In this document: positions 23,585-52,478 of the stretch, piece after piece | Numbering within the stretch: the first letter of the stretch is position 1 | Layout: each line of letters starts with the position of its first letter | From: Octopus vulgaris | Lineage: Eukaryota | Length of the DNA stretch: 64,000 nt | NCBI GenBank assembly: GCA_951406725.2 | Contig: OX597833.1 | Location: 8,556,001 to 8,620,000 of the forward strand | Direction of reading: 5' to 3' | Translations under genes and position numbers: made by a program | The notes under the pieces: model-generated | What the model was told of the DNA's origin: nothing | The model's input: only the letters and a program-made list of their open reading frames with translations | Databases searched by the model: none

Positions 23585-23658
23585 TCACTTGAGCCATGTC
23601 TGAATGATATTCATCATAATCAACCCTGTACTGCACACCATCAGTAGAGAATTAGCAG
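23585..23658 (-). CDS. Last coding exon (AANSLLMVCSTGLIMMNIIQTWLK*), GPI-signal-like hydrophobic tail
   Basis: tctttttgtttctttatttcag acceptor, phase 1, TGA at 23587-23585, AATAAA about 165 nt downstream on the - strand. Confidence 0.75.
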
Positions 23659-24204
23659 CTGAAATAAAGAAACAAAAAGAAACACCTTCAATTAGTCTCC
23701 ATCGTAAAACACGTTTCTACAAAAGAAAAAAAACTTCTAATTTGTAACTTGTTGTACATTTTGGTGGGTTTAGGTGATCCCTCAAGTGGAATTGCTAACA
23801 CCAAAGTCTACCTGTAAACTCTTGAAGGGATTACCATTTTTGTATAAACTAAAATCTCTTCAGGACCTCAATTCTGAAACTGGTTGCAACAAACCTTCAA
23901 AAGCTTTGCTCACCCTTACATATATTTTACAGCTCAGTAAAATAATGCAACTCACTCAACCATTAAGGCATAATCAAACCCATTGTCATTCAAGAAGAGT
24001 TAATATTATTCCTTAGCATTTAACACAACAGCAGGAGTAAGTTTTGAACTTGTGACCACTTGGTTACAATTATTATTACCACTTACTATATTTCCAGGGT
24101 TACAACTATTATTTGCCTAAAATTCACTTCTTTTCTCTCAAAAGTTAACAGCACAGTCAAAAGAATATTTCTAATAATTCCTTGTTTTAACATTTACATG
24201 TGAA

Positions 24205-24348
24205 TGAACAATGGTTAACAGAATTTGAAGTGAACCATGGTTAACAGAGTTTGAAGTGAACAGTGGTTAACAGAGTTTGAAGTGAACAGTGGTTAACAGA
24301 GTTTGAAGTGAACAGTGGTTAACAGAGTTTGAAGTGAACAGTGGTTAA
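24205..24348. repeat. 26-bp minisatellite, about 5.5 copies (tgaacagtggttaacagagtttgaag)
   Basis: Units start at 24205, 24231, 24257, 24283, 24309 and 24335. Confidence 0.95.
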
Positions 24349-24494
24349 TTCGCTGGACACTGTTCACTCCTTCAGCTCTTCTGGACCACTTTTAACTGCG
24401 GTTCTGTACAGCCTTTAACACTTATCCCCTGTGTGGAATGTGGCCCACTACTCTGCCTTAACTGGGATTCAATCAAAATTTAGTGGTCACTTAC

Positions 24495-24515
24495 CGTCAC
24501 TGGAGCCAGTTGATG
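24495..24515 (-). CDS. 21-nt microexon (TSTGSSD)
   Basis: tttttttttattatttatttcag|CATCAACTGGCTCCAGTGACG|gtaagt, phase 1-1. Confidence 0.75.
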
Positions 24516-25397
24516 CTGAAATAAATAATAAAAAAAACATAAATATATCAAATTAACAAAAATCAGTTCAGTTCTATTTTTTATCCAGTCATTTCAATAT
24601 TGCCTTCTTTATAGAAAAATGTAGCTAAGGTGGGTCAAATAGATTGAGACTACACACACACACACACACTGTATCTGTGTGTGTGTATGCATATGTATAT
24701 AGAATATAAATGAGCCACAAACATGTACAGATGGCTGCATAGGCTTCAAACAAAGGCTATAACTTTTTTTTTTTTTTTATCCTTATGTTTTAACGAGAAC
24801 AGTTTCTTTCAAATTGATGTAATTCTTCATTAATCAATTAAACGGAGCTGCTTGAAACGGCCAAAATGTATTGACACCTGTACACACCTTTGTTACTCAT
24901 TTATATTCTGTTCACCTAATTTTCGAATTTGCATTTCAGAAACACTACAGAAAGTACCTTTATAAAAAAAGTACCTGTCTGAATGACCAAGAGCAGGTAT
25001 CTTCACTCAGCTGCGTTGCAGTGTCTGCACACCTGGCAGGAATATCAGGTGCAAACGCCCCTGCATGGAGTCTTGATATTCAATTTTCAATTAATATTGT
25101 TTGGGTGTGCAGGTTATAGTGACCTAGTAATAAGGTGCTTCAATTCAAGCCCTTAATTCAATGGAATCTTATATCCTTTAAGTTCTTTTTAGGTGAAACG
25201 TTTTTGGTTGCCTCAAAAAAGCTCCTCTGCCATTTCTTCTGGCCCCTGCTCCTTATCCCCATCTTCCAGAGTAATTTTAGGGGATGGTTATTAATTGGGT
25301 GCTGCTGCTGCTCTGCTGTAGGATAAATATGGAAATGATAGACTGATGGGCTTCCATATAGTTTCTGTCTGTCAGTCCCACAAACAAGGTATTGGTT

Positions 25398-25795
25398 ATC
25401 ATCATCATCATCCTCCTCATCATCATTTAACGTCCGCTTTCCATGCTAGCATGGGTTGAACGGTTCAACTGGGGTCTGGCAAGCCCGAAGGCTGCACCAG
25501 GCCAGTCAGATCTGGCAGTGTTTCTACAGCTGGATGCCCTTCCTAACGCCAACCACTCCGAGAGTGTAGTGGGTGATTTTATGTGCCACCGACACAGGTG
25601 CCAGATGAGGCTGGCGAACGGCCACGCTCGGATGTGTTTGTTACGTGCCCTCAGCATGGAGGCCAGTCGATGCGGTACTGGCTACGGTCACGTTCGGATG
25701 GTTTTCTTATGTGCCACCGGCACTGGTACCACAAGGATACAAATTCCATTGATGTTCATCTATTTTGATTTGGTTTGATTTGATTTTCACTTGCT
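25398..25795 (-). mobile_element. Young RTE 3'-UTR-only insertion with (CAT)n. Similar short copies at about 3882-4040, 9445-9600, 14464-14770, 33200-33330 and 56512-56720 (-), and 46700-46900 and 62320-62716 (+)
   Basis: catcatttaacgtccgctttccatgctagcatgggttg...ggatgcccttcctaacgccaaccactccgagagtgtagtggg consensus. Confidence 0.85.
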
Positions 25796-26367
25796 GTTGT
25801 ATAAGAAGAAAATGCCTGACCATAACAGCCATTGCCGAAGAAGAGGTAAGGCATCAAAGGAGAGAGATATTCTGGTTTGGAATAAATTCTGCTGCTTAGA
25901 ACAGAATCCTTTTGTCATTCAGAAAGTATTCATGGCTCTTAAGCAGTTTTCAAACATACACTATTTTTTCAGTCTGCTACCAAAGTAATTTTTCAAGATA
26001 GCTTTTTTCCATTTATTTCCTTTCCTGAGCGTCCAAGTAACACAACACTTGCACCACATCCTCACATCCTTTTCTCTTCCTTGTTCTTGTTTGGATTGAC
26101 TACACGTTCACACGGACCCCGGCCTTCCGACTGACTCTGGAGGACCTAATTCCTGGAATCTATCTCCAGACTACTCTTCCTCTTCATTCCGATTTCGCCA
26201 CTCTACACCTTCATTGCAGAAATCATTACAATTTCTGCCGGACCCTTCCACTTTATCTCCTCCTACCTATCTTTTTTCTCTTTCCCTTTTTGTCCCCACC
26301 AATGACCCCTACTCTGTGCCTATCATTGGTGATTTTCTTTCTCTGTCTTTGGACTTTTTCTATATTT

Positions 26368-26395
26368 CTGATGAAGAGCTCCCGCTCGAAATGTG
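26368..26395 (+). ncRNA. Minimal hammerhead-ribozyme-like core in a Penelope-type repeat remnant (about 26005-26485)
   Basis: CTGATGA-a-GAGC-tccc-GCTC-GAAA-tgt. The downstream ~80 bp (26405-26480) repeats 26020-26101, like a partial tandem pLTR. Confidence 0.55.
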
Positions 26396-26924
26396 AATTC
26401 CTCTTTCTTTTCTTGAGCGTCCAACAACAGGACTTGAACCACAGCCTCACATCTTTGCTTTTTCTTGTTTGGATTGACTCTTGACTCTATATATATATAT
26501 ATATGTAAATGTATATATATATGTAAATATATATATATATATATTACTCTTTTCTCTTTTACTTGTCTCAGTCATTTGACTGTGGCCATGCTGGAGCACC
26601 GCCTTTAATCGAGCAACTCGACCCCGGGACTTATTCTTTGTAAGCCCAGTACTTATTCTATCAGTCTCTTTGCCAAACCGCTAGGTGACGGGGACATAAA
26701 CACACCAGCATCGGTTGTCAAGCAATGCTAGGGGGAACAAACACACACATATATATACATATATACGACAGGCTTCTTTCAGTTTCCGTCTACCAAATCC
26801 ACTCAAGGCTTTGGTCGGCCCGAGGCTATAGTAGAAGACACTTGCCCAAGGTGCCATGCAGTGGGACTGAACCCAGAACCATGTGGTTGGTAAACAAGCT
26901 ACTTACCACACAGCCATATATATT

Positions 26925-27212
26925 GGAGGTGCAATGGCCTAGTGGTTAGGGCAGCGGACTCGCGGTCGCAGGATCGCGGTTTCGATTCCCAGACCGGGCG
27001 TTGTGTGTGTTTGAGCGAAAACACCTAAAAGCTCCACGAGGCTCCGGCAGGGGGTGGTGATCCCTGCTGTACTCTTTCACCACTCTTTCTTCTGTTGGCC
27101 TGCTCGCTTAGCCAGCGAGGTGGCGTCATTCGAAGGCTAAAACAATGCGAATGCATTGTGACCAGCGATGTGTAACAACATCTGATGGTCTGGTCGGTCA
27201 CGTGATCACGTG
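26925..27212 (+). mobile_element. SINE with a tRNA(Arg)-like head. Related decayed copies near 49858-50160 and 57520-57750
   Basis: tggcctagtggttagggcagcggactcgcggtcgcaggatcgcggtttcgattcc has A and B boxes, no paired acceptor stem, and a ~210-bp body. Confidence 0.7.
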
Positions 27213-27213
27213 A

Positions 27214-27254
<41 letters not shown>

Positions 27255-27810
27255 ATATCATTTTAACATCTACTTTTCAATGTGGGGTCAAATGGAATTT
27301 ACTGAGGCAGATCCCTTTCCTGCAATCAACCTGTTTCCAAGAAAGGTAATATTTCCCCATTGTAGAATATTGGAAATAAATGACACTGTTTATGTCAGGG
27401 TCATTCATTTACAACCATCAGGTGATGTCATGTCAGACACACACATTTCAAAGATCATCCACGTTGAATATTTGGGCCTGAAAGATTGCTTGCAAACATC
27501 AGCTGTAAAACAAGCTTGCCAGTTTATTGTAAATAGAAAATTGAATATACAGAGTGTATTGATTGGCTTTCAAACTTTGGCCCAGAGCCAGCAAGTTGTG
27601 GGGAGGACGAAGTCAATTACATCGAACCCAGTGTTCAGCTGGTACTTGTTTTATTGACCCCAAAAGAATGAAAGGCAATGCTAACCTTGGTGGAATTTGA
27701 ACTCAGAACATAAAGACAGGCAGAATGCCAATAAGCATCTTGCCCAGCATACTAATGCTTGTGCCAGTTCACCATATATATGTGTATGTATATATTTATA
27801 TATGTATATA

Positions 27811-27845
<35 letters not shown>

Positions 27846-27863
27846 GTGTGTGTGTATATATAC

Positions 27864-27905
<42 letters not shown>

Positions 27906-28229
27906 ATATATATATATATGTATATATATTTATAAATAAGGATAATATTGATATTTAAATATCGATATTATCAAGTGGCCAGCATGGGAATAAATACCAA
28001 CAAAGGTAATAATTTTTTTACAACTAAACCAAAGCTAGAAATCCAGGATCTTGAATTATTCAGTAATTATCTTTTTGCTCGTCTATTTTGTTCCTCCGTC
28101 TTATCTCATGGTGCAATATGAACATTTAACGTGGTTTTTAGAGTCAAGGATTTGACTGCTATTTCGGCATGGTGGTATCTCTCAGACACCCTTGTTTTTA
28201 GTTGTATGTGTATATATATGTATATGTAT

Positions 28230-31200
28230 ACACAAGACCACCACAGCAAATAGACCCAAGGTGGACACCACCGGCAACAACACATACATCACCTCGATGC
28301 TCCTACTGAACATCAGAGGACTGCTAACACTCAGTGACAGGACAAAAATCCCGTTCTTGAGAGACTTTGTTGCATGCAATCAAGCCTTATGCATAGCACT
28401 TACGGAAACACACCTGAAACCGGACATAGCAGATGCGGAATTACACATACCACAGTATGTTGTATTACGGACCGACAGAAAAGAAAGGAGTCATGGTGGA
28501 GTTGCTATGTACATCCGCGAGGACCTCACACCCCAGGTCCTTTTGTCATACTCAAACTCGGTGTGTAACACTAATTGTACATATAAGGCAACTTGGTGTA
28601 GTTGTGTGTGCTACATATCGCCCTCCAGATGTCCCAAGCCATGTAGGCAAGTTTGAAGACTGCCTTATAAAAATAGAAGTTCTAGTCACATTAGAACAAC
28701 ACATAAGTGTACTTCTTATGGGAGACTTCAATCTACCCAACGTCAGATGGCCCAAGGGCCTTTCTCTCCCAGGAATGACATGATGTGAACGAGAACAGGC
28801 GAGGTCCCTCCTGAACCTCATCAACACCCTGTACATGGAGCAAGTAATACTCCAACCAACCAGGGCAGGTAACATACTGGATCTCTGCTTCACAAATAAT
28901 ATGGATCTCATCCATAATGTGAAAGTGACACCAACACTACTCTCGGATCACAACATGGTAGAGCTGACCATGTACGGGCCAAAGGAAAGCATGGACATGC
29001 AGCCTACAAGAAACTCTCAGAATCTTTCCAGCTTGAACTTCCATAAGGCAAACTGGAAACAAATTGAGAAAGAGATCCTCAAACAAAACTGGCCTGAATG
29101 TCTCTCCTCGCCAGACATCTACATGAAACTTCAACAATTCATGTCTGTAATGCAAGCCATATGCTACAAATGTGTCCCAGAGAGAAAGGCCACTGTACAC
29201 AAGAACGAAATCCCCAGAGAGAGGAAAATTCTAATGAGACGGCGTACAAAAGTTTCAAATCGCCTAAACAAATTGAAAGCAGTGAAAAGTCCTGCCTGAA
29301 AATAAAACTGTTGGAAATTGAAAAATGTCTGCAACTCTCCCATGAAAAGGAAAGAGCAGACAAAGAAGCCTGGGCTATAGACAACATAAAATCTAACCCC
29401 AGAGCTTTCTACAGGTATGCCAAAGAAACAGCTACGGTGCACTGTAGGATAGGGCCACTCCTTGAAAAGGATGGCACACACACAGGAAATCCAATGAGGG
29501 TAAGTGAAATACTAAATGAGCAATTCAAGAGTGTTTTCACTCCACCCCTTGGGCATTTCCAAATCAGCAATCCAACTGACTTCTTTACCACTGCAGATAT
29601 AAAATCAGAGGCAGCGATGATTGATTACATCAATATAAAGGAAGACGATGTAATAAAGGCTATAGATGAAATGAAAACAAACTCAGCTACTGGCCCCGAT
29701 GGATTCCCGGCAATCCTTCTAAAAGTATGTAAGAGAGTCCTAGCAAGACCACTGCAGTCTCTCTTTCAGAGCTTCCTTGCAGCTGGCAAACTTCCAAGAA
29801 AACTGAAGGAAGGTAAAATATGCCCTATTCATAAAGGAGGTAGCAGAGCGGAGGCCAAGAACTACAGACCTATCTCTCTGACCTCACACATCAGCAAGGT
29901 CATGGAACGAATAGAAGGAAACTAATCACCTTCCTTGAAGAAAATGACTTGCTGCCTGACACCCAACATGGTTTCCGACCAGGAAGAAGCTGCTTAACTC
30001 AGCTCCTACAACACTATGACTGGGTGCTGAAACGACTGCTCAACCACTCAAATGTGGAAGTGATATATCTCGACTTTGCAAAGGCCTTTGATAAAGTCGA
30101 TCATGGAATGATATGTCACAAACTGCGTGATCTTGGCATAGTTGGAAAATTGGGAGAATGGCTTCATGACTTTCTGAAGGATAGAAGTCAGGTGGTAGTA
30201 GCTAATGGGGCCACTTCCATTAACATGCAAACAGTGAGCGGTGTTCCACAGGGCACTGTTTTGGGACCACTACTGTTCATAATGGCCCTCTCAGACATGC
30301 CCTCAGCCATGCAGAGAGCCACAATCACAAGTTATGCAGATGATACAAAAGTTTCACAGGCAATACAGAACCCTGAGGACACTAAACGCCTGCAATGTGA
30401 GCTGGACGAAATATACAAGTGGGCTGAAAAGAATAGCATGCAGTTCAATGCTGAAAAGTTTCAAGCTTTACGCTATCAGCATGCAAAACTAAATGCAATA
30501 CTCAATGAATACACAGGACCTGGAGGGATTGCAATCCCAGAGGCACAATCAGTGCGTGACCTGGGTATTTACATGAGTGATGACGCAACCTTTCATATAC
30601 ATGTTGCTAAATTGGCAATGAAATGTAGACGGCTGGCCGGATGGATTCTTAGAACAAGAGACCAAGAAACCATGATGGTCCTCTGGAGGACATTTGTCCT
30701 AAGCCACTTTGACTATTGCTCTCAGCTATGGTCACCATCCAGTGTCAAGTTAATCACAGAACTTGAGGCGATCCAACGAAGCTACACGAAGAAGATAGCC
30801 TCTGCGCAGCATTTAAGTTACTGGGAAAGACTCAAACTCTATTCCTTGGAGCGTAGGCGAGAAAGATATGCCATAATATACATCTTGAAGATCCTGGAAG
30901 GACTTGTCCCAAACTTTGGCATCGATAGTTACACAAATGCCAGAACTGGGCGCCACTACGTGGTGCCAAGGACTCCAAATTTGCCATCAAGATGTAGGAC
31001 AAGATACTGTGATAGCCTGGGCTTCAGAGGCCCACAGCTCTTCAATATCCTCCCGAAGAACCTGAGGGACCTGCATGGGGTGGATGTGGATGTCTTTAAA
31101 GTAGGACTGGATCTCTTCCTGTCAGGTGTCCCGGATGAACCAACTTCACGGCAGGAGGTGCAGATGAGGGCAGCTGCATCGAACTCTCTCATACAGCAAA

Positions 31201-31318
31201 TGACAGTTGCTAAAAAGCATTCGTGAAGTAAAATTATGTAGCAACACCAAATGGTGGTGCCCCAGCATGGCCACAGCTCGTGAGTTGAAACTAGATAAAA
31301 TATATAAATAAATAATAC
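28230..31318 (+). mobile_element. CR1/L2-group LINE, near-complete ORF2 (APE endonuclease plus RT), inactivated by frameshifts and a stop
   Basis: LNIRGL, TETHL, GGVAMY, YRPP, MGDFN, LDL..TN, SDHN endonuclease motifs. NYRPISL, QHGFR, YLDFAKAFDKV, GVPQGTVLGPLLF, YADD RT motifs. Split over ORFs 28192, 28433, 28835, 29098 and 29949. Confidence 0.93.
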
Positions 31319-31320
31319 AT

Positions 31321-31492
31321 AGGCGCAGGAGTGGCTGTGTGGTAAGTAGCTTGCTAACCAACCACATGGTTCCGGGTTCAGTCCCACTGCATGGCATCTT
31401 GGGCAAGTGTCTTCTGCTATAGCCCCGGGCCGACCAATGCCTTGTGAGTGGATTTGGTAGACGGAAACTGAAAGAAGCCTGTCGTATATATG

Positions 31493-31541
<49 letters not shown>

Positions 31542-31752
31542 TTGTGTGTCTGTGTTTGTCCCCCTAACATTGCTTGACAACCGATGCTGGCTGGTATATT
31601 TACGTCCCCGTCACTTAGCGGTTCAGCAAAAGAGACCGATAGAATAAGTACTGGGCTTACAAAGAATAAGTCCCGGGGTCGATTTGCTCGACTAAAGGCG
31701 GTGCTCCAGCATGGCCGCAGTCAAATGACTGAAACAAGTAAAAGAGTAAAGA
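31321..31752 (+). mobile_element. tRNA-headed SINE with internal (TA)n and a LINE-like 3' tail. Other copies at 26545-26915 (-), 55341-55693 (+), 60012-60880 (+); partial at 2300-2470, 12258-12420, 61393-61548
   Basis: tggctgtgtggtaag (A box), ggttcagtccc (B box), conserved body, tail ggcggtgctccagcatggccgcagtc...gaaacaagtaaaagagtaaa. Confidence 0.88.
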
Positions 31753-31794
31753 GTATATATATACACAAACATATATGTATTTATATATTTATGT

Positions 31795-31825
<31 letters not shown>

Positions 31826-31830
31826 TATAT

Positions 31831-31884
<54 letters not shown>

Positions 31885-32009
31885 ATATGTATATATGTGT
31901 ATATGTATATATGTGTATATGTATATATATGTGTATATGTGTATATGTATATATGTGTATATGTATATGTGTATATGTATATATGTGTATATGTATATAT
32001 GTGTATATG

Positions 32010-32054
<45 letters not shown>

Positions 32055-32095
32055 GTGTGTATATGTATATGTGTGTATATGTATATGTGTATATG

Positions 32096-32126
<31 letters not shown>

Positions 32127-32148
32127 GTATATGTATGTGTATATATAT

Positions 32149-32179
<31 letters not shown>

Positions 32180-32196
32180 TATATGTATATGTATAT

Positions 32197-32228
<32 letters not shown>

Positions 32229-32329
32229 GTGTATATGTATATATATATATAGCATGGAAAGCGGACGTTAAATGATGATGATATATATATATATGTATAT
32301 GTATATATATATATGTATATATGTATATG

Positions 32330-32378
<49 letters not shown>

Positions 32379-32385
32379 ATATGTA

Positions 32386-32436
<51 letters not shown>

Positions 32437-32525
32437 GTGTATATGTATATATGTGTATATGTATATATGTGTATATGTATATATGTGTATATGTGTATAT
32501 GTATATATGTGTATATGTATATATG

Positions 32526-32562
<37 letters not shown>

Positions 32563-32691
32563 GTATATGTGTATATGTGTATATGTATATGTGTATATGT
32601 ATATGTGTATATGTGTATATGTATATGTGTATATATATGTGTATATATATATATATGTATATGTATATATGTATATGTATATATGTATATG

Positions 32692-32722
<31 letters not shown>

Positions 32723-32727
32723 GTATG

Positions 32728-32758
<31 letters not shown>

Positions 32759-32986
32759 GTGTATATGTATATATATATATAGCATGGAAAGCGGACGTTA
32801 AATGATGATATATATATATATATGTATATGTTTATGTATATATATATATATATATATATGTATATGTATATATGTATGTATGTATATGTATGTATGTATA
32901 TATGTATATATATATGTATGTATATATGTATATATATGTATATATATATATATGTATGTATATATATATGTATATGTGTGTGTATA

Positions 32987-33033
<47 letters not shown>
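31753..33033. repeat. ~1.3-kb complex (TA/TG)n microsatellite containing two RTE-tail 30-mers
   Basis: agcatggaaagcggacgttaaatgatgat at 32251 and 32781. Confidence 0.95.
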
Positions 33034-33034
<1 letters not shown>

Positions 33035-33357
33035 AAATGGGCTTCATTTAGTGTCTATTTACCAAATGCACTTTGGTCAGCCTGGGAATATAGTTAGGGG
33101 CACTTGTCCAAAGTGCCAAACTGGAGGACTGAACCTGTAGTAATGTGGGGTCACACATATTTTATCTGTATATATATATTTGGCCATGTCATCACCATCG
33201 TCCTCATTTAACATCCATTGTCCATGTGGGTTGGTCAGTTTGACCAGGGCTGGTGGGTGGTAGTGGCTGCACCAGACTCCACTCTAATTTGGCAGGGTTT
33301 CTATGGCCGGATGCCCTTCCTAATGCCAGCACAAGCCTCAGTAAAAAAATAATTTAT

Positions 33358-33518
33358 AGGGGCAGATGAGGGCAGCTGCATCGAACTCTCTCATGCACCA
33401 AATAGCAGTTGCTAGAAAGCCCCCATGAAGTGAAACCAAGTAGCAACACCAAATGGCGGTGCCCCAGCATGGCCACAGCTCATAAGCTGAAACTAGAATC
33501 AATCAATCAATCAATCAA
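33358..33518 (+). mobile_element. 3'-terminal fragment of the same LINE family with an (AATC)n tail
   Basis: gcagatgagggcagctgcatcgaactctctc...ccccagcatggccacagctc...gaaactaga matches 31160-31294. Confidence 0.9.
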
Positions 33519-34039
33519 AACTGCATAAAAATGTAATTTTGAATAAATCAGAATAGATTTATGGACAAGAAACTACAGTTCTTGAGAGTTGTACCAGTTG
33601 AGCAACAAAGAAAATTTTCCATCAGTTGACATATTTCACACCTTGTTTTCAGAAATCTATAAATTTTATGGATGCTTTCCATGCTGGCATGGGTTGGATG
33701 AGTAACTGCTCCCAATCAGCTGATGCTATTTGGCTTGGATACCCTTCTTATTACCATCCATTTTTACAGAGTCTACTGGTTTTGTTTTCTTGAGGCACCA
33801 ACACTGGATGTGTTGAATAAAGGGACCTCATAATATTCACTGATAAAAGTTATAGTCATAAATAGGTATTTGTTGGTCCTTATGCTTCAAGAAATATTGC
33901 TCTGTGTATTTACGGGACCTGATGTCACTGACAATTGCTAGATTCTTATTGAATCTGTTGGCACACCACACACTCCCATACATTACTCTCTCTCTCTCTC
34001 TCTCTCTCTCGAAATATTTTAGACAAAAAGACAACTTAC

Positions 34040-34069
34040 TGGAATCGTCTCCGCCAAGAGTTGTTGCCT
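34040..34069 (-). CDS. 30-nt microexon (EATTLGGDDS)
   Basis: cttgtcttattgcag|...|gtaagt, phase 1-1, composition matches the neighbouring exon. Confidence 0.75.
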
Positions 34070-35691: not shown

Positions 35692-35916
35692 CAACACCAC
35701 CAGCATGGTCTGCAGGCATATCTGAATCTGGAGAACCCGGTTCATCGCCACCGCCGCCACCATCATCACCACCACCACCACCACCACCACCACCACCGCC
35801 ACCACCACCATTACCACCTCCAGGAGCAGCACCAGTAGTGTCGACGGCACCACCACCACCACCACCACCTTCACCACCACCTTCACCTCCACCTCCACCA
35901 CCAGCATCAGCAGTTT
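35692..35916 (-). CDS. 225-nt Gly-rich exon (ETADAGGGGGGEGGGEGGGGGGGAVDTTGAAPGGGNG...DDGGGGGDEPGSPDSDMPADHAGGV)
   Basis: Long T-rich tract plus ctag acceptor, TTG|GTAAGT donor, phase 1-1, open frame with mixed Gly codons. Confidence 0.8.
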
Positions 35917-39338: not shown

Positions 39339-39346
39339 AACAGAGC
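39339..39346 (-). CDS. Candidate 8-nt microexon (GCTCTGTT), frame-disrupting as assembled
   Basis: Minus strand reads ctttgatttctttcaaattgcag|GCTCTGTT|gtaagt. Good splice sites but length is not a multiple of 3. Confidence 0.35.
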
Positions 39347-39589
39347 CTGCAATTTGAAAGAAATCAAAGCTATATAACTTGACTAGAATACAGGTACCAT
39401 AGACCCTCACAGACAGTGACATCAGCAAGAATGGTTAGAAAACAAAAAAACATCCAGTTTTGATATCAACAACCAAATAGTGTGGTTATCATAATCACAG
39501 CTTGGCAAAGATTTATAGTTTTTGTGTTCGTATGTATGTATGTATGTAGGTGTGTGTATATATAAATAGGCATGTATATATAAGGCAAT

Positions 39590-42130: not shown

Positions 42131-42145
42131 TATAATATATATATA

Positions 42146-43035
42146 TCATCATCATCATCATTTAACGTCCGTTTTCCATGCTAGCATGGGTTGGACGATT
42201 TGACTGAGGTCTGGCGAACCAGACTCAAATCTGATCTGGCAGAGTTTCTACAGCTGGATGCCCTTCCTAGTGCCAACCACTCCGAGAGTGTAGTGGGTGC
42301 TTTTACGTGCCACCAGCACGATGGCCAGTTTGGTGGTACTGGCACTGGCAACGACCTCGCTCGTGTGCTTAACGTGCCATTGGCACAGAGGCCAGCTTGT
42401 TGCTCTGGCAATGATCTCACTCGTATGGTACTCTTAGCGCTCCACTAGCAACGGATACCAGTCACCGAATTTGATTTCGACTTCAATTTCACTTGCCTCA
42501 AAAGGTCTTCGCAAGCAGAGTTTAGTGTCCAATGAAGGAAAGGCACACACAAGTGGACTGGTTACACCCCTGGCATAGGCCACAAGGTTATGGTCTCACT
42601 TGCACTTCTGAAGTACAGCATATTTCCAGAGGTCCCGGTCACTAGTCATTGCCTCGGTGAGGCCCAATGTTTGATGGTCATGCTTCACCACCTCACCCCA
42701 GGTCTTCCTGGGTATATTTCTTCCACAGGTTTCCCTCAACCACTAGGGTGTGGCACTTTTTCACACAGCTATCCACATCCATTCTTGCCACATGGTCATA
42801 CCAGCACAGTCGTCTCTCTTGCACACCAAATCTGATGCTTCTTAGGTCCAACTTTTCTCTCAAGGTTCTTACACTCTGTCGAGCATGCACACTGACATTA
42901 CACATCCATCAGAGAATACTGGCTTTGTTCCTTGCAAGCTTACGCATGTCCTCAGCAGTCACGGCCCATGTTTCACTGCCATGTAGCATGGCTGTTTGTA
43001 CACATGTATCATACAGTCTACCTTTTACATCACGG
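42146..43035 (-). mobile_element. RTE LINE 3' part, tail-to-tail with the previous copy
   Basis: (CAT)n tttaacgtccg...; minus-strand MLHGSETWAVTAEDMRKL and QERRLCWYDHV. Confidence 0.88.
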
Positions 43036-44194
43036 GAGAGAAAAAAATAAGATGAAAGTTGGTGAAAGAGTAATAAAAGAATTTCACATGCAGTAAAACT
43101 TTGTGGAAGATAAAGGAGAAGAGCGAAATTCTGCTTCAACTATTTTAGAAGTAAGTTAAGTAAAAACTACCAATTTATAGTGTGTGTTCCAGCTAGAAGG
43201 AACAGCTGATTTAGAGTGTATAGTGTGGTCGTTTTTAGTGATGCTAAGGCGGCGAGTTTGCAGAATCCTTAGCACATCGGACAAAATGGTTAGCAGCATT
43301 TCGCTTGACTTCATGTTCTGAACTCAAACTGCTGCCAAGGTCAACTTTGCCTTTATTTCGGAATCGATGAAATAAGTACCAGTTGAGCATTGGGGGTCAA
43401 TACAATCGACGAGCTCTTCATCAAATTGCAGGCCTTGTGCCTATACTAAAAAAGGATTATTTACTGCTTCTCTACACTATGTTGATGGTTCTCACTCTGT
43501 CTACGGCTTTAGAGAGGTATATGATTGATTCGCTAGATTTACTGCAGAAAGCCTCTTCATTATGAACTCAAATCCGATCGAAATCAATGCAATCTTTCTT
43601 CCTTTGGGGATCAGAGTAGATAAAGTAAATAGCATTCACGTGCCTAAATTTAAAGTCCCCATTATTATTGGATGAGAGGCGACAGGACCAGAAGTGCATC
43701 AAATTGCATATCTTACAAGAGTTAGTTTCTTCATTTTCCGATTCCTCTGAGATCGAGTTTACCTTTCAGCCTTTGTCGATCAATAAAATTAAGTTACCGT
43801 TACGTAATGATATCCATGAAACTGGCTCTGTTCTCCCACAATTTCATAAACCCTGTGTTTGTATTAGAAATCAATATTGTACAGTACATAGCAGAATGTA
43901 TAGTGTCAGAGACTATTCATTTTGGTATTCAGTGAAGTCAATTTGCATTCTAAATTCAAATCCCACTGAGCTCAAATTTTTCTTTCGGTAATAAAAGTTG
44001 AGCTGACGAAGAAGCCTCTATGTGCACAACTAACATGCATGAAATGGGAGCCAATTTGTGAGAAACACCATGGGCGCCAAGTGAAAAGACACAATGGTTA
44101 CTGCAACCCTATATATATATATATATATCTGTGAAGAAATGGGATAGTCACAGCTGAAATGCTTTTCAGCAGAGGTGAGGCATGAAATTTTTCT

Positions 44195-45850
44195 TGTCAC
44201 CAGCAGAGGTAGGAGCTCTCTGAACTTAGCCCAGGCTATTCTTATTCTAGCAGCTACACTTTCAGAGCACCCACTTGGTCACCTAGGTAACGGAAGCTAC
44301 CAACTACTTCTAGTTTTTCTCCCTGGAATGTGGCAGAAGTTGTTCTCTGCACATTTTCAGTGTTTGTTGCTCCTGAGCATCTGCCACATACAAAAACTAT
44401 CTTCCCAGTTAGCCTTCCTTTGATATTGCTGCACCTCTTATGTGTCCATAGCTTACACTGGGTACATCTTATGGAGTTCCTACCTATGCCTTTTCTATAG
44501 ATTGAGCAGGGCTATCTAGCTGAAGGGATTTGTGGTTTGTTTGCCTTGCTACTTATTAGGACTTTGGTTTTAGCTAGGTTGACTCTAAGGCCCTTTCTCT
44601 ATGTCAACGAAAGCCAGGTACAGAGGTTTATCTTTGGCTAGGTATTTCTCATGCAGCTACACCAGTCATTGGGTATGACTCCGTGTATCATCTGGCTAAC
44701 TGTATGGGTGACTAGGCTATAGCCAACACTGCCAGATATTTTGAGCATCTCTGCATCTCTGATTCCTGATGCATCTCTGCATCTCTGATTCCTGATGGAC
44801 TGGGGGCTTTCCATCTTCATACTTTTAATTGCTTTATCTACCAAGGTACTGTCAATTCGGATAGCTGGTCCCTCTGTTGGGTCGACATTCAGCAGACTCT
44901 CTTTCTCCCATTCATTCTCTTTATTGAGCAACCTTTCACAGTGGTGTCTCCAAACCTCTCTCTTTGCAGCCTTGTTTAGTACAAGTGAACCATCATCCAT
45001 GCAGACACATTTCTCTCCTACATCACAATTCTCTCTCTCACACACTGTCTTGCAACATGAAATACCTCAAGTCTTTGGTCCTCACGGCGCAGAACATTGG
45101 TAAATTTTTTCTTATTTGCTTCCCCTCTGGCTAAATAAACCTGTCTCCCATCTTCTCTTCTGGCAGTCTGATACAATTCCCTACTACCTCTGTTCTTCCA
45201 GTCCTTGCAAGCCTGTTTCTTTTCTCTAATAGCCCTGTCAACCACATTGTTCCACCACCACGTTACCTTGGGTCGAGAGGGGACTTTGGCACCATCCACA
45301 GATCTGGTCAGTGGCTCTCAGCAGGTTCTCCCGTAGAAACCTCCAGTTGTCTTCCACAACATGTGATGCTATATCCCCTTCCATTTCGTCAAAGGCTTCG
45401 AGTAATACATCACTAAATCTCTGTCCATTTGCAGGATCTTTAAGCTTCCAGACCCTTCTACTCCATGCTGGTTGTCTTCTGATCCTGAAGTTGCTAACTA
45501 TTAGTCTATGTTGTGGGGTACATTCTTCGTCTGGGAAGGTTTTGGCATTTATAAACAGCCCTCTTTCCCTTTTTCTGGTGAGGATGTAGTCAATTTGGCT
45601 AGTGTGTCTGCCAGAATGGTAGGTGACTAGGTGACTGGCAGGTTTCCTGAAGTTGGTATTGCAAACCATAAAATCATTTGCATCACAGAACTCTAGCAGT
45701 CTGGTTCCCTCCTCATTGCGGGAACCAAAACCATAGCCTCCATGTACACCATGGAAGCCCCCAGCATGTTGTCCAACATGTCCATTGAAGTCACCAGCCA
45801 CCAAGAGAAGGTCCCTATCATTCGTCAACGCAGTTGTCTGCAAGAGGGTC
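44195..45850 (-). mobile_element. RTE LINE internal fragment (endonuclease C-terminal half to RT flank, with internal deletion)
   Basis: ORF 45238-45927 has AGDFNGHVG, RNEEG.RLLEFC, SQIDYIL, PQHRLIV, followed by TWWWN. Confidence 0.88.
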
Positions 45851-47394
45851 TCAAATTCACATGACCTGTACTGGTGCTTGCTGTGTCCTACATCAGATGC
45901 CAAAGTGATTGCAGAGTACCACGACATGGAGTGTTTTGCTCAAGAACACAACAGGGTCTGGTCTGGAAACTGAACCCACAATCTTGCAATCATGAGTGCA
46001 GCACATTAACCAGCAGGTTATGTGTCCTCATTACACAGGCAACTTCACAAGTCATTCTCATGTTGTAAGGGCAGAAGCAGAAAGCTCTGATGGCGACAAA
46101 AGCTCTCTCTCTGAGTGGAAGCAAGATTGTATTGTGCTTGAGAATGTTACCTGGCAGTGAGTTGTGGGCTGAATATGAAGAAGACCTGTGAAGAAGAGAG
46201 AGGAATAAAGCTAGGGGCTCCACTGGACAAAGTGCTGGTGTTTGAGAAAAAAAGGTAGAAAAGGAAGAAATGTGCAGAGAGAAGGCAATGCTTATTCTCA
46301 GGCAAACTGATGTAAATGGATGAGGAGAGTCACATCAAGTGCCGTTTGCTTAAAACCACTTTTCCTGAACAGAGTCCCCCCCACCTCCATCAAGCATTTC
46401 CCTCACATCACATTCCCTAACACTCATCTCTTCTCTATTTCTGATATTATTTGGCCACCATAATCACCTGAGAGCAGAATAGGTACAGATCACACCTGGC
46501 TCCCTTTCGTCCCCCAATGCCACAATCACTCCTATTCCACTAAGTCTCTTTCTCTCCTTTCTTCATCTCTAACTGGGACATCATCTTTTTTACAGCAAGA
46601 TGCTTATCTCTCTCTTCTTCTGTTATTCTTTTCAACCTCTCACCAACTGGCACAAACCCTTCTCCCTCGACACTACACCCTCCTCCAAATCGAAATGCCT
46701 GTCTTCAAAGCTAGTTGGTGACCCATTGGTGCTGCTGCCCACCAAAAAAGCACCTAGTAAATTCTCTAAAGCAGTTGGCATTAGGAAGGGCACCCAACCA
46801 TAGAAACCATGCTAAAGCAGATGGTAAGCCTGAGCCAACTCTTGCCATACTGTCCAACCCATGCCAGCATGGAAAATGTATATTGAATAACGATGTAAAA
46901 AGGAGAGGCCACCTCTTAAGCCTTTCAAACCAGTCCTCAGTCAGAAAAGGATTTGCTTCAAAAACTGACCATTCATTTCTTCTGCAATGGTCATTATGTT
47001 TATCTTCATGTCCTGTCAGACACAGGAGCCATTCCATATTAAACATAGAATCACATCAAGTAAACGGAGACACTTAAGCACTTGATGACATTTTGCTTTT
47101 CGTTTGCTGCAAACATTAACGATAATACTCTGGCAATATGGCTGAGTCATCTTCTCCAACAACATTCAACTTCATCCTTATAACTTCACCCCTTTAGATG
47201 AAACAGTCTTCCATTTTATTTGATGGATTTTCTTCTAGCCATCGTTAATAAAGGTAATACATTATGCTGTGTGCATTTGAAGTGAAGTCCAACCATGGCA
47301 GCAGAGAAATCCATCTCAAGCAGTAAAACAGAATTTAAATAGAGCTGTTATGTTCATGGTTGCTCATAAATTCAAAGACCTTTCCTGGTGAAGA

Positions 47395-48140
47395 ATATAC
47401 CCATCCACCAGCATAGACTTCAGGCTAGGAGTCCAAGAAGCAGACCATTCTGGAAAGGATTTGGAAGCTCAAGGATCCTTTAAATGGTCAGAGATTTAGG
47501 GATGCCCTAATTGAGAAACTTAATGAGGAGGAGAAGGAACTACAGACTTATAACATAGAGGGCAACTGGGAATTCCTACAGGACAGTTTGCCAAGTACCA
47601 CAGACTAAATCTGTGGCTGGTGCAAAGTCCCAAACCAAACCTAAAGTGATGTTATAGACAAGACCATTAGTGTAAAGAAACAGGCCTGGAAGAATGGTGG
47701 TAGCAGAGAACTATATCAGGTAGCTAGGCGGGAGGCTAGAAGACAGGTATACTCAGCCAGGGGAGAAGCAGAAGGGAGCAACTTTGCCAATGCTCTGTGG
47801 CATGAGGACCAGCGGCTTGAGAGGTTTTGGGTTGCAAGACAATGTGTCAGACAAAATTGTGATGTTGTAGGAGAGAAGTGTGTTCAGATGGATGATGGCT
47901 CACTTGCAGTTAGTGATTCTGCAAAGAAGGAGGCATGGCAGAGCCTCTATGAAAGGTTGCTAAATGTAGAGAATGCATGGAAGAAGGAGAACTTGCCTAA
48001 TGTAAACTCATCTGAGGGACAGGCTGCTATCTGTATCAACAGTAGTTTAGTAGATAAAGCAATTAAAGATACGAAAAACAGTGAAAGCCTCCAGCCAATC
48101 CCGAATCACAGCTGAAATGCTTAAAACATCTGGCAGAGTT
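47395..48140 (+). mobile_element. RTE LINE internal fragment, inverted relative to 44700-45520
   Basis: WKLKDP.NGQRF and MDDGSL...KKEAW...ERLLN shared with the - strand copy. Confidence 0.8.
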
Positions 48141-49676
48141 TCCGTAGCTTGGAGGATTCCTGTTCTATATTGGAATAATTTGGTTTGTAGTTAAGACGAC
48201 ACTAGTTTTATATGTCTTTAGCACAAAACAATATTTCGCAAAGGTCCTACTTACATCACACAAAAATTTGAGATGATTTGTTGCTGACATTTCAAGATGT
48301 TAATAACATTGGAAAACAAACACCCAGAACTTAAGTTAGACAAGTATTAAAAAATTATAAAATATTAGTAATAAATTAGAATACTTTACAATCATTTTTA
48401 TAAATTTATGTTAATTAGAAACTGTGATTCAAAATTCAACAGAATTGTATAAATATCACAAAATGTCTCCAGGAAGTCTTTCGCTTCACTTTGAAGGTGA
48501 AATTTGTTTTTCCTATGGTTTTTTTCTTCTTTTTCATGTATTTTCAACATTAATAACCAACAAAACCGTCAGAAATCACTTTTTTAAAACTAAAATTTCA
48601 CATTCAAAATGAAACGAATGTAAATAAAAAATTACCGAAATTTCGAAGATTCTTCCTCTTTCAGTTCTTTTGACCAGTTGTGTTGTTTACTCTTAGGTTG
48701 GCCATCTTTGAACACATCTAGGCTAGAAACAGTCCAGCAATGACCCTCCCTCACCAATTGCTAAAACCATTGCAGGCGTTTTCGTAAAATAGTTTTTTAA
48801 CGGCAAGAATGGTGCCACTAAATTACTACAATGTCTACTAGAAATAGCAACCAAATCCACCTCAACTCACTATCATTCTAAACTAAGTTCACCTCAGATA
48901 TTGTCATCTTAGACTTTAGTCTAAACGAGAAATCACAATACAGAACTAGAAATACAAAAACTACCGTTTCAGAAACACACCAAAACTTCCCAGTAATTAA
49001 TACTTTGATGTGGGTACAAACTGCCCAGTACTCTTCGCTCTTTGGTTGTTCAGTAACTACCGCCATTAATCCTTTTTCGTCAATGGACACGCGACCAAGT
49101 CTCAAAGACTTAATTCTTCCATTTCGTCCACAGAAAACCACCAAAGTCTGTGGAGCTCTTTTCAGTGGTTCCTCTTTTTGAAAATGAGATTTGGTGGCTG
49201 CATTAAACGTCCCCAGCAATTAGACACAAGTTTCCACAATACATTAAATACTAACTAAATAGAGACACAGTTTTGTTGGATAATTGCAGGAATTTGTTAG
49301 GAAAAACGAACCTAAAAAGAAAGAAATAATATCGAGGAGACAAATAAACCGGAAATTAGAGCCAGTGTCGTCCATAGACATGGAGCACACTTAGCATTAA
49401 TTAGTGATGGGCAGAGTTGGGGGACTTAATGCCATTTAATCTGTGAACAAGGCTCCAAATCTAGGAAAAGATATACGTTGATTTCAGGATTAAATCGACG
49501 TGACCTCGAAAATGCAAAAGTCGACTTTAGTAGGATTCAAACACAGATCGTATAATTTATGCGACTAAATACAAAAGTGTCCAATTACATCTTCATATAA
49601 AAATCCCAACAAAAAAAAATCATCTTCAGTCTTTCTTATTAAGTTTAAAACAAAAGAATAAGGAAGCAATACTTAC

Positions 49677-49682
49677 CATTTC
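49677..49682 (-). CDS. 6-nt microexon (GAAATG; adds G-N)
   Basis: Minus strand reads tttttctttttcctccag|GAAATG|gtaagt. Strong acceptor and donor, phase 1-1. Confidence 0.65.
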
Positions 49683-51889
49683 CTGGAGGAAAAAGAAAAA
49701 AATATATATATTATTCACAAAGATATGAAATAAAACATTTAAAATATATATCATAGAATTGTAATACATCTAATAGGCTTAAATTAAGCTAACGATAATA
49801 ATTTCTACTAAAAGCACAATGCCTGAAATTAAGCTAACGATAATGGTTAACTGGAGGGGGGTGGTTAGGGGCAACTCGGCTCGCGTCGCAGGTTCCGTTT
49901 CTGGATTGAGCAACATGTCATAGAGGAAGGCAAGTAATTTCATGTTGCCCCAGCAATCACCTGTAAAGGTGTACTATCAAGCACCCGGCTGGTACACCCG
50001 TTTCTCACATTCTCAATGTGCTACCGGGTCCAGGTTTGACTAAACAGACGAAAGCATGGCACATGCTAAGCAGCAGGTCACGGCTGAAGTCAATCGGATG
50101 TAATCCTAATGATACTAATGTCCTCCTTGACCGTTAAATTGCTTAAGACAAAAATAAATACATTAAAACAAAGGGATTTTAGGGAGAGGACATTTGCCTT
50201 TCAACATTTTTTCTAATCAAACTGTTTTAATAGTTCTAAACCTACCTAGAAGTTTTTCAGCCTTTATCGGTGAAAAATGTCTGTCTACATATTCTGTGAT
50301 TGAAGCCAATTCCCTCGTCAAAATATTATTGAAGAATACAGGCGTGGTAAATACTGTTGAAAATAAATAAGTGAGGGTGGTCATTCATTGTCTGACTAAA
50401 ACGTCCAGACATTTCAACAGTTTCTGTCTCTCTCTCTCTCTCCCACACACACACACACACGATCGTTTATTATGAGTATTATTCTCAACTAACAGCATAT
50501 TGGTGGACATTAGTACCTAACTGATTACATCTGTCATTTCTTTCTCCCCCACCGACATTGTTCCAGTTTTATTAACATCAGAATTACTCGTGGCTAAAAG
50601 ACAAGACTGTCAAAATATTCGCCAATTTGATATTTCGTTAACTTTTCATCATTTTATAAATAAAATTAATGAAACAGTAAAAACATTAAGATAAAAAAAT
50701 AATCCGAAATGTTCCATTTGAAACGAGGAAAATAAATATTTTGAATGAAGACGCCACAGTTGTGGCGTCTAACGAAGAGATGAACTGACATTTTTTTAAT
50801 TCAAACATTCAATGGAATGGTAAAGCCATTCCCGAAAAGCTCACTTTTCATTTACATTTATTCCCGGGCCTACATTCATAACAATATCTCATGTATAACA
50901 CTGTCTCCCATCTACCACTACCACATTTCCATTACTAACAATATTCAAAGAACCACAAATACAATAATTTGAAAAAGTTTCGAGAAAATGGTCCGAAGCA
51001 TAAAGAGAATATTTTGATAATCCATTTATGGGCCACCACCCTCAGTTGCCCCACAGTCAAGAAGTGTTAGTACAAAGTGAGTGACCCACCCACCCAAGGA
51101 CCCAAGTCTAAAAACTCATTCCCGCAAAACCTCAAAGTTCGGCCGATATTTCTTATGCACAACTTCTAAATCACAAGTCCTAAACCTTCTCCAGGTCTGA
51201 AACCAGTTGAATTTTCTTTTACTCCCCAGAGAAATAAACAGAAGAATGCATCCCAGGGCTGCTATTTTATCGTCCTCAAAAGGATGAATTCGCAAACAAC
51301 GCTTCCATCCAACGATCTTAATGCTTCTACCAAATTGTCCCATCTCTCTCAAGCTCTCTAGTCCTATGTGTATATATATATATATATATATAATCATGTT
51401 CCTATACTACTGAATCGGAAAGTATCTGGTGCGCCTCAAACGGTAATTTATTTAAAACATCATCAATTACGATTCTTGGGGGAGGGGCTTATTCACTCCC
51501 CTGGCCCCGCCCTTTCTCGAATTTTTCAGTTGTGACTTTTTTTAAAAAAATTATTTTTCCTTTGGAATTAATGATTCTCTCTAAACTACAAAAATATAAA
51601 TTTTTCATTTTTTCCCCATTTTCAGCCTTTTTCTCTCACATTTCCGCAATTTTGCCTTTCTTTGACATTCAAAAATTCTTTCAGATTTACATTTTTGTGA
51701 ACATTTAGAAATAAATAGTTTTCAAAAATTAAATTTTCTTCATTTCACTTTATTTGGCGGACTTTCAAAATTTCAATTACAAAAACAATTCTACCCCACC
51801 CCCACTTTCCAAAGTCTTTATTTTCCCCTTTTCCTGAGAACATCAATGAGTAAGAAATTTTCAAAAGCAAGTCAAAACTGAAAAATGAC

Positions 51890-51898
51890 AGAGAGAGA

Positions 51899-51944
<46 letters not shown>

Positions 51945-51959
51945 TAACTGCTTTATGTG

Positions 51960-52043
<84 letters not shown>

Positions 52044-52300
52044 CACACACACAGGTTTCAAAATTTGAATCAGCTGAGACAGAGAGGAGAGATTAGAGAG
52101 AGAAAGAAAGAGAAGAGAGAGAAGGGAGAGAGAGAGAGAGAAGAGAGATAACTGCTTTATGTGTATGTATATATATATATGCATACATACATTTATATAT
52201 GTATACGTGTATACATATATGTATATATATATTCATATACATACACACAGGTTTCAAAATTTGAATCAGCTGAGACAGAGAAGAGAGATTAGAGAGAGAA

Positions 52301-52334
<34 letters not shown>

Positions 52335-52335
52335 G
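51890..52335. repeat. Two-copy ~200-bp tandem duplication built from GA/TA microsatellites and unique spacers
   Basis: gagataactgctttatgtgtatg and cacacaggtttcaaaatttgaatcagctgagacagag each occur twice. Confidence 0.9.
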
Positions 52336-52396
52336 CAGTGGGTGGGGCGCAAACAAAAAGAATTACAAGAAATCAAATCGTTTGGTGTTTGTTTAC

Positions 52397-52478
52397 CTTG
52401 ACAGGAGACTTGGCTCATAAAACCACACATCATGACCAGTAAAATAAATACTCGCATGATACACATGGACTTCGACAT
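52397..52478 (-). CDS. Unnamed secreted/GPI Gly-rich protein, coding exon 1: signal peptide MSKSMCIMRVFILLVMMCGFMSQVSC-Q
   Basis: ATG at 52478, hydrophobic core with a V-S-C cleavage motif, CAAG|GTAAAC donor, phase 1. Confidence 0.75.

Follow-up and report, generated by a model that had tools for sequence, protein, structure and literature searches.

Exon structure of the locus

The minus strand of the window, the 64,000-nucleotide stretch of Octopus vulgaris DNA that was analysed, likely carries a single gene of seven in-frame exons across 29 kb. Its features, in window coordinates, are the following.

52734..52741, no strand: palindrome TGACGTCA, presumably a cAMP-response element, about 260 nt upstream of the ATG
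52397..52478, minus strand: exon 1, coding part; 27 codons, phase-1 donor, predicted signal peptide
50246..50353, minus strand: exon 1b; 108 nt, phase 1-1, 36 aa, predicted amphipathic helix
49677..49682, minus strand: exon 2, 6-nt micro-exon; Asn of the sole N-glycosylation sequon
35692..35916, minus strand: exon 3; 225 nt, acidic Gly-rich disordered stalk
34040..34069, minus strand: exon 4, 30-nt micro-exon
24495..24515, minus strand: exon 5, 21-nt micro-exon; Ser/Thr-rich, predicted omega region
23585..23658, minus strand: exon 6, last coding exon; small residues, then a hydrophobic tail, predicted GPI signal
22570..23584, minus strand: likely 3' UTR; AATAAA at 23421, 22916 and 22590, putative end

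A sequence-only reading had proposed six of these exons (82, 6, 225, 30, 21 and 74 nt), and their coordinates, the AG and GT around each inner exon, the phase 1 of all introns and the open 145-aa frame of the join were confirmed. However, that model was not complete, as it overlooked a 108-nt phase-1 exon at 50353-50246 in its 'intron 1'. The acceptor and donor of this exon 1b are both present in the sequence, and with it included all five inner exons are multiples of three. The proposed junction 52397/49682 is probably not the main one, since the evidence joins exon 1 to exon 1b and not to the 6-nt exon.

A strict splice-site scan covering the full window (14 or more of 18 pyrimidines, a GTAAG donor, exon length up to 120 nt) gave five hits on the minus strand, two of them open and symmetric, namely exons 2 and 5, and nine on the plus strand, one of them open and symmetric. 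In the looser matrix scan of 23659-52396, six candidates from the minus strand were open and symmetric, versus one on the antisense strand; it serves as a guide only, being built on rough generic frequencies with thresholds chosen after the exon scores were seen. The recovery of exons 2 and 5, together with the excess over the control strand, thus places the exon set beyond chance. Exon 2 has the best splice-site score of the gene and exon 1b ranks third in two matrix scans, while the matrix scores of the acceptors of exons 3 and 4 are low (1.3 and 1.9). Within 264 kb, the sequences flanking exons 1b, 2, 4 and 5 occur only once. A further 15-nt candidate exon at 47918-47904 was dropped, as it lies inside a dispersed repeat and one such hit also occurs in the antisense control.

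The palindrome TGACGTCA is the only one in the window and sits in a CpG-rich patch, where CpG o/e reaches 1.78 at 52501-52750 compared with 0.41 window-wide. This patch is likely the promoter, a function suggested by its composition and position.

Intron-less copies in the genome

The genome search returned 16 matches: two were the gene itself, one was an intron-less copy named C3, and 13 had E of at least 0.85, two of which were examined and had no match at the DNA level. When exon 1b, exon 1 and the C3 copy served as DNA queries, each recovered only itself; a known pair of 81% identity was missed, so more copies are possible. Within the limited sensitivity of the genome searches a single intron-bearing locus was found, and no paralogues were found within 100 kb on either side. 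Two decayed intron-less copies, C3 and C7, lie on other contigs and likely record the splicing of the gene as fossil cDNAs.

The C3 copy contains exon 1, exon 1b and the 6-nt exon as a circular permutation that spans about 1.4 units. The BLAST borders coincide with splice sites, including both borders of exon 1b. Past the end of exon 1, C3 agrees with exon 1b at 17 of 20 bases, versus 7/20 for the six-exon join and 4/20 for the intron. The 6-nt exon directly follows exon 1b at two junctions (5/6 and 6/6 bases), and the sequence past exon 1b fits the join to exon 2 at 17/20 and 18/20 bases, compared with 5/20 and 7/20 for read-through. The non-colinear junction running from exon 1b through exon 2 into the interior of exon 1 occurs twice, identically, 179 nt apart. 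The permuted exon 1'/1b/2 model reached an alignment score of 259 (237 without exon 2), whereas the linear 1-1b-2-3 model scored 178, the six-exon join 77 and unspliced DNA 76 and 96; the maxima of 500 shuffled and 500 genomic controls were 36 and 32.

The permuted exon order over about 1.4 units points to retroposition of an RNA circle, and the pattern is most likely the one expected from such an event. No poly(A) tail was found at the copy (longest A-run 2 in the 60 nt downstream), nor a match to exons 3-6 or the UTR, nor a target-site duplication of at least 7 nt. The donor side of the permuted junction is exact at 49677, and the re-entry point is 52468, inside the first coding exon. An acceptor was not recovered there, with no AG directly before 52468, no pyrimidine tract and a score of -16 at 52469; these values refer to today's sequence, in which the nearest AG is one base off, and the ancestral sequence may differ. 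The circRNA-derived pseudogenes of mouse and human, as described in the available part of Dong et al. (PMC4897178), derive from internal exons that have an annotated splice site on either side. C3 resembles the pseudogenes described there in being intron-less, with non-colinear exons and without a poly(A) tail or exons from outside the circle; unlike them, it re-enters inside a first coding exon and covers more than one round. Judged by titles and the beginnings of abstracts, the matches listed for cephalopod circular RNAs and circRNA-derived pseudogenes included no mollusc pseudogene.

The C7 copy comprises the end of exon 3, possibly exon 4, and exon 5 joined to exon 6 without an intron. The model of exons 3-4-5-6 scored 115, that without exon 4 108, exons 5-6 only 103, and unspliced exon 6 75. 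The end of exon 3 was matched as well by 1 of 5000 shuffles; exon 4 is represented by spacing and its last bases only and is not significant alone (2012/5000). In the 5' direction, the end of exon 1b followed by exon 2 and the start of exon 3 gave the best fit among five models (13/400 shuffles), a weak, post hoc fit that involves a short form of exon 3. This fit weakly suggests the link between exons 2 and 3 across 13.8 kb, the weakest in the gene. Continuation into the 3' UTR was not significant (35 versus a shuffle maximum of 40). With eight non-synonymous and two synonymous changes in 23 codons, C7 is unlikely to be a working retrogene.

Predicted product and its relatives

With the extra 36-aa exon, the main product is likely 181 aa long, not 145 aa. 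It has a signal-peptide-like N-terminus, an amphipathic 36-mer, a disordered stalk that is acidic and rich in Gly, and a GPI-type tail. The signal peptide predicted from exon 1 (19-residue hydropathy 2.03) likely has Cys26 as its last residue. The helical moment of exon 1b is 0.59 over 18 residues, a value reached by 36 of 2000 shuffles, and over 11 residues it is not significant (693/2000). The single N-glycosylation sequon, N-E-T, takes its Asn from the 6-nt exon and continues in exon 3, and is present solely in isoforms with exon 2. In exon 6, mean hydropathy is 1.61 over residues 4-22 (19 residues), and the sole charge is the terminal Lys. By inspection and hydropathy, the C-terminus shows a small-residue omega region and a hydrophobic end without a cytoplasmic tail, from which GPI anchoring is predicted; the tail hydropathy is moderate (1.6), so that a weak transmembrane segment or a secreted tail could also be encoded. 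The spliced gene with signal-peptide-like and GPI-signal-like ends, as originally proposed, is supported by splice sites, frame and hydropathy.

Past the signal peptide, 47 of 155 residues are Gly. The (GGT)n part of exon 3 may be a young expansion. Such arrays are common in the genome, with at least 104 non-self matches among the 40 scored of 719 candidates, none of which reaches the unique 3' 49 nt; poly-Gly alone is therefore no evidence.

The protein search with exon 1 accepted one of two candidates, the Octopus bimaculoides gene model A0A0L8G1F3 (72 aa), in which 26 of the 27 exon-1 residues are identical. This model changes exon at the same point, using the same exon-1 donor and then the exon-1b acceptor. 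Its residues 28-72 are identical at 40/45 positions to exon 1b and the frame that reads through the exon-1b donor, which in O. vulgaris stops at 50219-50217 and gives a 72-aa form. Between the two species the nine residues of the read-through do not differ. A0A0L8G1F3 is the sole database protein; annotation appears to cover no more of the gene than a 72-aa fragment, in a single species.

A full-length protein or a homologue outside Octopus was not found in the protein collections searched. The 72-aa protein matched only itself among proteins of 39-126 aa. The exon 3 region gave no protein match at E ≤0.01 among 8000 scored candidates, and exon 3 had none among 1.84 billion representatives. 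Pfam returned no family at E ≤1 for any of four gene-derived queries, PDB no match for exon 1b, and the ESM Atlas no usable feature match for either query; its structure neighbours (TM 0.49-0.61, model pTM 0.25) all fell below the bar for naming. Restriction to one lineage is consistent with these searches, whereas the 'cephalopod-restricted' distribution first suggested is narrower as observed, namely two Octopus species. In sequencing runs searched with exon 6 and the 3' UTR, no run was listed as RNA; at least half of the words were present in 20 of 24 rows (seven studies, four organism labels), 14 of the 20 being only guessed to be RNA, and these rows carry no weight as evidence here. Full-text literature searches gave no match for four peptide motifs or the accession, and among the matches listed for octopus microexons, as far as their records describe, none concerned this gene.

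Known systems and alternative readings

We consider this a real, lineage-restricted gene that probably encodes a CD24/CD52-like surface glycoprotein and whose combinatorial splicing is possible. CD24 and CD52 have a signal peptide, a short disordered Ser/Thr body, an N-glycan site, a small-residue omega region and a hydrophobic tail. The octopus product shares this layout, a likeness by analogy, but its body is larger, with the 36-aa amphipathic segment and poly-Gly, and its gene has seven symmetric exons and a sequon split over a 6-nt exon. Sequence similarity to CD24/CD52 and the prion/Shadoo families was not found in Pfam, PDB or the 1.84 billion representatives.

Schistosome micro-exon genes (MEGs), as described in the accessible parts of PMC4671649, PMC4350168 and 10.1101/2023.06.21.545858, are multigene families of flatworms in which 10-20 very short exons make up most of the coding region, and for which splice variants have been demonstrated. 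The MEG-like layout proposed earlier holds in part. Similar to the MEGs described there, the octopus gene has symmetric inner exons behind a 5' flanking exon with a signal peptide (by hydropathy), a small, disordered, predicted secreted or anchored product, and is hard to annotate. In contrast, coding is not mostly by micro-exons (<36 nt): there are three, which together make up 57 of the 390 nt of inner coding sequence (15%; 20% in the six-exon model), at the one intron-bearing locus found, outside flatworms and with no MEG hit in Pfam or the 1.84 billion representatives.

In the reading that we moderately favour, this is a single seven-exon gene whose 181-residue product is exported, N-glycosylated once and GPI-anchored as a small acidic glycan-carrying surface tether. 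The signal peptide would be removed behind residue 26, and close to the border of exons 5 and 6 GPI would take the place of the tail, leaving a processed chain of about 130 residues with a net charge of the mature chain of -15. The amphipathic segment would likely be the binding end, with the N-glycan at its base, held off the membrane by a disordered stalk of about 90 residues that likely carries O-glycans. Without the 6-nt exon the N-glycan would be lost and the rest would stay untouched, so that this exon alone would act as a small glycan switch. The copies would imply transcription in the germ line or early embryo at some past time, C3 most likely arising by reverse transcription round an RNA circle of the 5' exons.

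An unlikely alternative is combinatorial skipping of the inner exons, by which cells or tissues would differ in their surface tags, with up to 32 forms in an MEG-like manner. All introns are in phase 1 and, as had been claimed, skipping inner exons causes no frameshift (32/32 combinations open); moreover, exons 3 and 4 have weak acceptors and the 6-nt exon toggles the sequon. However, the open combinations follow from phase alone, and introns of phase 1 occur commonly behind signal peptides and inside Gly codons. The claimed combinatorial splicing is so far unsupported, as neither fossil copy clearly has a skipped exon: each C3 unit includes exons 1b and 2, and C7 slightly favours inclusion of exon 4 (115 versus 108). 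The small share of micro-exons in the inner coding sequence also argues against it, as do octopus splicing rates, for which the available text of PMC9699675 gives no large difference from those of other invertebrates.

Very unlikely, in our view, is that the locus mainly produces a 72-aa secreted peptide precursor from exon 1 and the exon 1b read-through, with exons 3-6 belonging to another or a minor transcript. Such a precursor would equal the O. bimaculoides model, with its conserved read-through residues, and would bypass the weak link between exons 2 and 3. Against this, in C3 the exon-1b donor was used and exon 2 follows in both instances (17 and 18 versus 5 and 7 of 20 bases); the only poly(A) hexamer within 1.7 kb past the read-through stop, ATTAAA at 49440, lies beyond exon 2; and the consensus donor of exon 2 requires a downstream acceptor, with no alternative first exon noticed. 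Equally improbable is a seven-exon protein that is not GPI-anchored and is instead a secreted Gly-rich matrix protein or carries a single C-terminal transmembrane helix. The Gly content and the tail hydropathy of only 1.6 speak for it, and Gly-rich structural proteins exist in cephalopods, but the small residues and uncharged end without a cytoplasmic tail form a GPI layout, and poly-Gly is maybe a late addition, hence not the core function.

The available parts of 10.1101/2022.06.11.495763 and PMC9815951 describe a cephalopod-specific gene, obimac0019980, which marks immature optic-lobe neurons and encodes a mostly disordered protein with a signal peptide, a predicted transmembrane segment and two helices. 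It is probably a different gene, set apart by its description, because an annotated O. sinensis protein is given for it there (E about 3e-88), whereas the exon-1 search gave none.

A bolder extension of the favoured seven-exon reading, which we regard as unlikely, is an octopus-specific GPI-anchored neural surface tag, convergent with CD24/CD52, in which five skippable exons tune the binding helix, stalk length and N-glycan cell-type-specifically, and whose gene once yielded a first-coding-exon RNA circle copied for more than one round into the germ line. If true, it would add to a kind of pseudogene otherwise reported in mammals, according to the accessible text of PMC4897178. Lineage-restricted surface-protein genes are candidate cell-recognition tags in cephalopods. 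With its permuted exons, C3 is a candidate for an RNA circle returned to DNA in an invertebrate, and through retrocopies of this kind micro-exon splice junctions can be checked from the genome alone.

Gene anatomy and reading frames

The sequence-only reading had assembled a minus-strand gene for a Gly-rich surface protein from six exons. Their positions were borne out, with AG/GT borders present and the join open over 145 amino acids, but the model was incomplete, as it lacked a 108-nt exon of phase 1-1. The only protein retrieved in the exon 1 protein search (one of two candidates) was UniRef A0A0L8G1F3 from O. bimaculoides, a 72-aa sequence that is the only member of its UniRef cluster. It shares 26 of 27 residues with exon 1, and its next segment matches window positions 50354-50220 at 40 of 45. 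Such near-identity points to an octopus as the source of the window, which maps to C20:8556001-8620000 of a 2.8-Gb genome. The matching segment opens with a pyrimidine-rich CAG acceptor, 108 nt before an internal GTAGGT donor, and therefore holds the additional exon, here called 1b. In the O. bimaculoides model, the exon 1b donor is read through, on to a stop. The join with exon 1b encodes 181 amino acids, and whichever of the five inner exons are included, the frame stays open (32 combinations).

The strict splice-site scan of the window gave five minus-strand hits, of which two, the 6-nt and 21-nt exons, were open and symmetric; on the plus strand this was true of one of nine. The looser matrix scan of the gene found six open and symmetric candidates in coding orientation versus one antisense; as it used a generic matrix and thresholds fixed after the scores were known, it is supportive and yields no P value. 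The known exons stand out in these scans, which supports the model. We consider it very likely that this is a real gene, and probable that the seven exons belong to one single transcript.

Two processed copies of the gene

Genome searches with the 72-aa protein and with the last exon each returned, besides the gene, one match (E 7.8e-4 and 5.3e-6, respectively), on the contigs C3 and C7 (L numbers denote genomic pieces with internal coordinates):

C3 ~81,023,770-81,024,025 (L005:1430-1690), minus strand: intron-less, circularly permuted copy, ~1.4 units of exons 1 (part), 1b and 2
C7 ~36,926,545-36,926,685 (L032:1400-1575), plus strand: colinear, intron-less copy, exon 3 end to exon 6

The DNA alignment of the C3 copy covers exon 1 up to its donor and exon 1b from acceptor to donor, in the order exon 1b end, exon 2, exon 1 from 52468, exon 1b, exon 2, exon 1 from 52468. 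The permuted model with exon 2 scored 259 and the best one without it 237, compared with 178 for a linear 1-1b-2-3 arrangement, 77 for the six-exon join, and 76 and 96 for unspliced DNA; the control maximum was 36 in 500 shuffles and 32 in 500 genomic pieces. As read from these alignments, two splice junctions are recorded in the copy, exon 1 with 1b and 1b with the 6-nt exon. A complete unit measures 179 nt and is identical to the gene at 142 of 176 aligned bases (81%). Where the units overlap (46 columns identical, 4 all different, 12 gapped), each has changes of its own, 11 in one and 12 in the other, against only 4 shared differences from the gene, so they have diverged from about the time of insertion. 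The copy adjoins a TA-rich microsatellite.

Reverse transcriptase making one pass round an RNA circle would produce the C3 copy in one step; for a linear retrocopy, two duplications and the loss of both ends would have to be assumed. The context of the re-entry point 52468 counts against a textbook back-splice: no AG immediately precedes it, and the AG one base off has no pyrimidine tract (score -16). Circular RNA-derived pseudogenes are, in the accessible text of Dong et al. (PMC4897178), a class defined by a non-colinear junction, which other routes can also produce. Splicing and circRNA levels in octopus are described as ordinary, with low circRNAs, in the available part of PMC9699675, which tempers both the circle reading and the combinatorial splicing proposed earlier. 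We lean slightly towards the C3 copy as a candidate RNA-circle-derived pseudogene, and regard regulated skipping of any inner exon as unlikely.

In the C7 copy, exon 5 abuts exon 6, the intron being gone, and sequence matching the 3' end of exon 3 lies farther upstream (1 of 5000 shuffles). The model of exons 3-4-5-6 scored 115, that without exon 4 108, exons 5-6 103 and unspliced exon 6 75; exon 4 by itself was not significant (2012 of 5000 shuffles). Eight non-synonymous versus two synonymous changes resemble the pattern of a decaying copy, which has an open frame of 59 codons. Farther 5', exon 1b end, exon 2 and exon 3 start running directly into exon 3 end was the best of five models (13 of 400 shuffles; the others, 90-400), and, as it was picked after inspection in A-rich DNA, this fit gives no more than a hint that the two gene halves may form one transcript and that the poly-Gly may be a later microsatellite expansion. 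The C7 copy may keep an earlier state of the gene that had no poly-Gly. This genome has many (GGT)n arrays. After the copy comes a short stretch similar to a common dispersed repeat.

Predicted product and known systems

The first 26 residues resemble a signal peptide (hydropathy 2.03 over 19 residues). In exon 1b, amphipathicity stands out at a length of 18 residues (36 of 2000 shuffles), though not at 11. The 155 residues after the signal peptide include 47 Gly, and the net charge of the mature chain is -15. The C-terminal tail consists of small residues followed by 19 uncharged ones (mean hydropathy 1.61), with Lys as the last residue. Given a single seven-exon transcript, GPI anchoring of the product is quite likely. 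The sole sequon of the full form, N-E-T at 65, takes its Asn from the 6-nt exon; all 16 isoforms that skip this exon are sequon-free. A precedent for one N-glycan under splicing control is fibulin 2, according to the accessible text of PMC12095903. A weak hint of neuronal or activity-linked expression comes from one CRE palindrome and a stretch of CpG-rich DNA ~260 nt upstream of the start codon. The product would be exported, its signal peptide cleaved and GPI added, and a flexible acidic stalk would display a binding helix and glycans. Its role would be adhesion or recognition, as for CD24/CD52, which we take to be analogous.

The likeness to schistosome micro-exon genes (MEGs) drawn in the sequence-only reading is loose. 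In the available portions of PMC4671649, PMC4350168 and 10.1101/2023.06.21.545858, MEGs are flatworm gene families in which 10-20 micro-exons form most of the coding region, whereas here micro-exons are a minor part, 57 of 390 inner nt; the gene is therefore not a MEG. Pfam, PDB, ESM Atlas and distant protein searches gave no match to the gene products. The O. bimaculoides immature-neuron marker obimac0019980 has, by the partial description available, a similar layout; the O. sinensis protein reported for it was absent from the exon 1 protein search, and identity of the two genes, compared by description only, is highly improbable. An exact-term literature search, with subscription papers and unseen supplements outside its scope, returned no paper on this gene.

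Surroundings of the gene

The following features were found in and around the window:

28156-31226, plus strand: fragmented LINE-type element in intron 4; 460-aa frame at 29844-31223 hits Pfam RVT_1 (E 3e-24)
31754-33034: TA-rich array of 1.3 kb, after the LINE-type element
44600-48100, both strands: decayed LINE pieces; 45241-45939 matches an endonuclease domain (E 8e-6)
24201-24348: 26-nt minisatellite, 5.7 copies, 95%, ~150 nt downstream of the 21-nt exon
19297-19538: 118-nt perfect tandem duplication
L025:1463-4687, ~55 kb left of the window, minus strand: 1075-aa frame; by eye, a Cys/His finger-like motif, with no Pfam match at E 0.001
L017:5165-7447, ~77 kb right of the window, minus strand: 761-aa frame with TPR repeats

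The 1075-aa and 761-aa frames are the nearest long non-repeat frames seen around the window and serve as possible synteny anchors. A 15-nt exon-like candidate at 47918-47904 lies inside a decayed LINE piece and is probably due to chance. The 118-nt duplication is either very recent or an assembly duplication.
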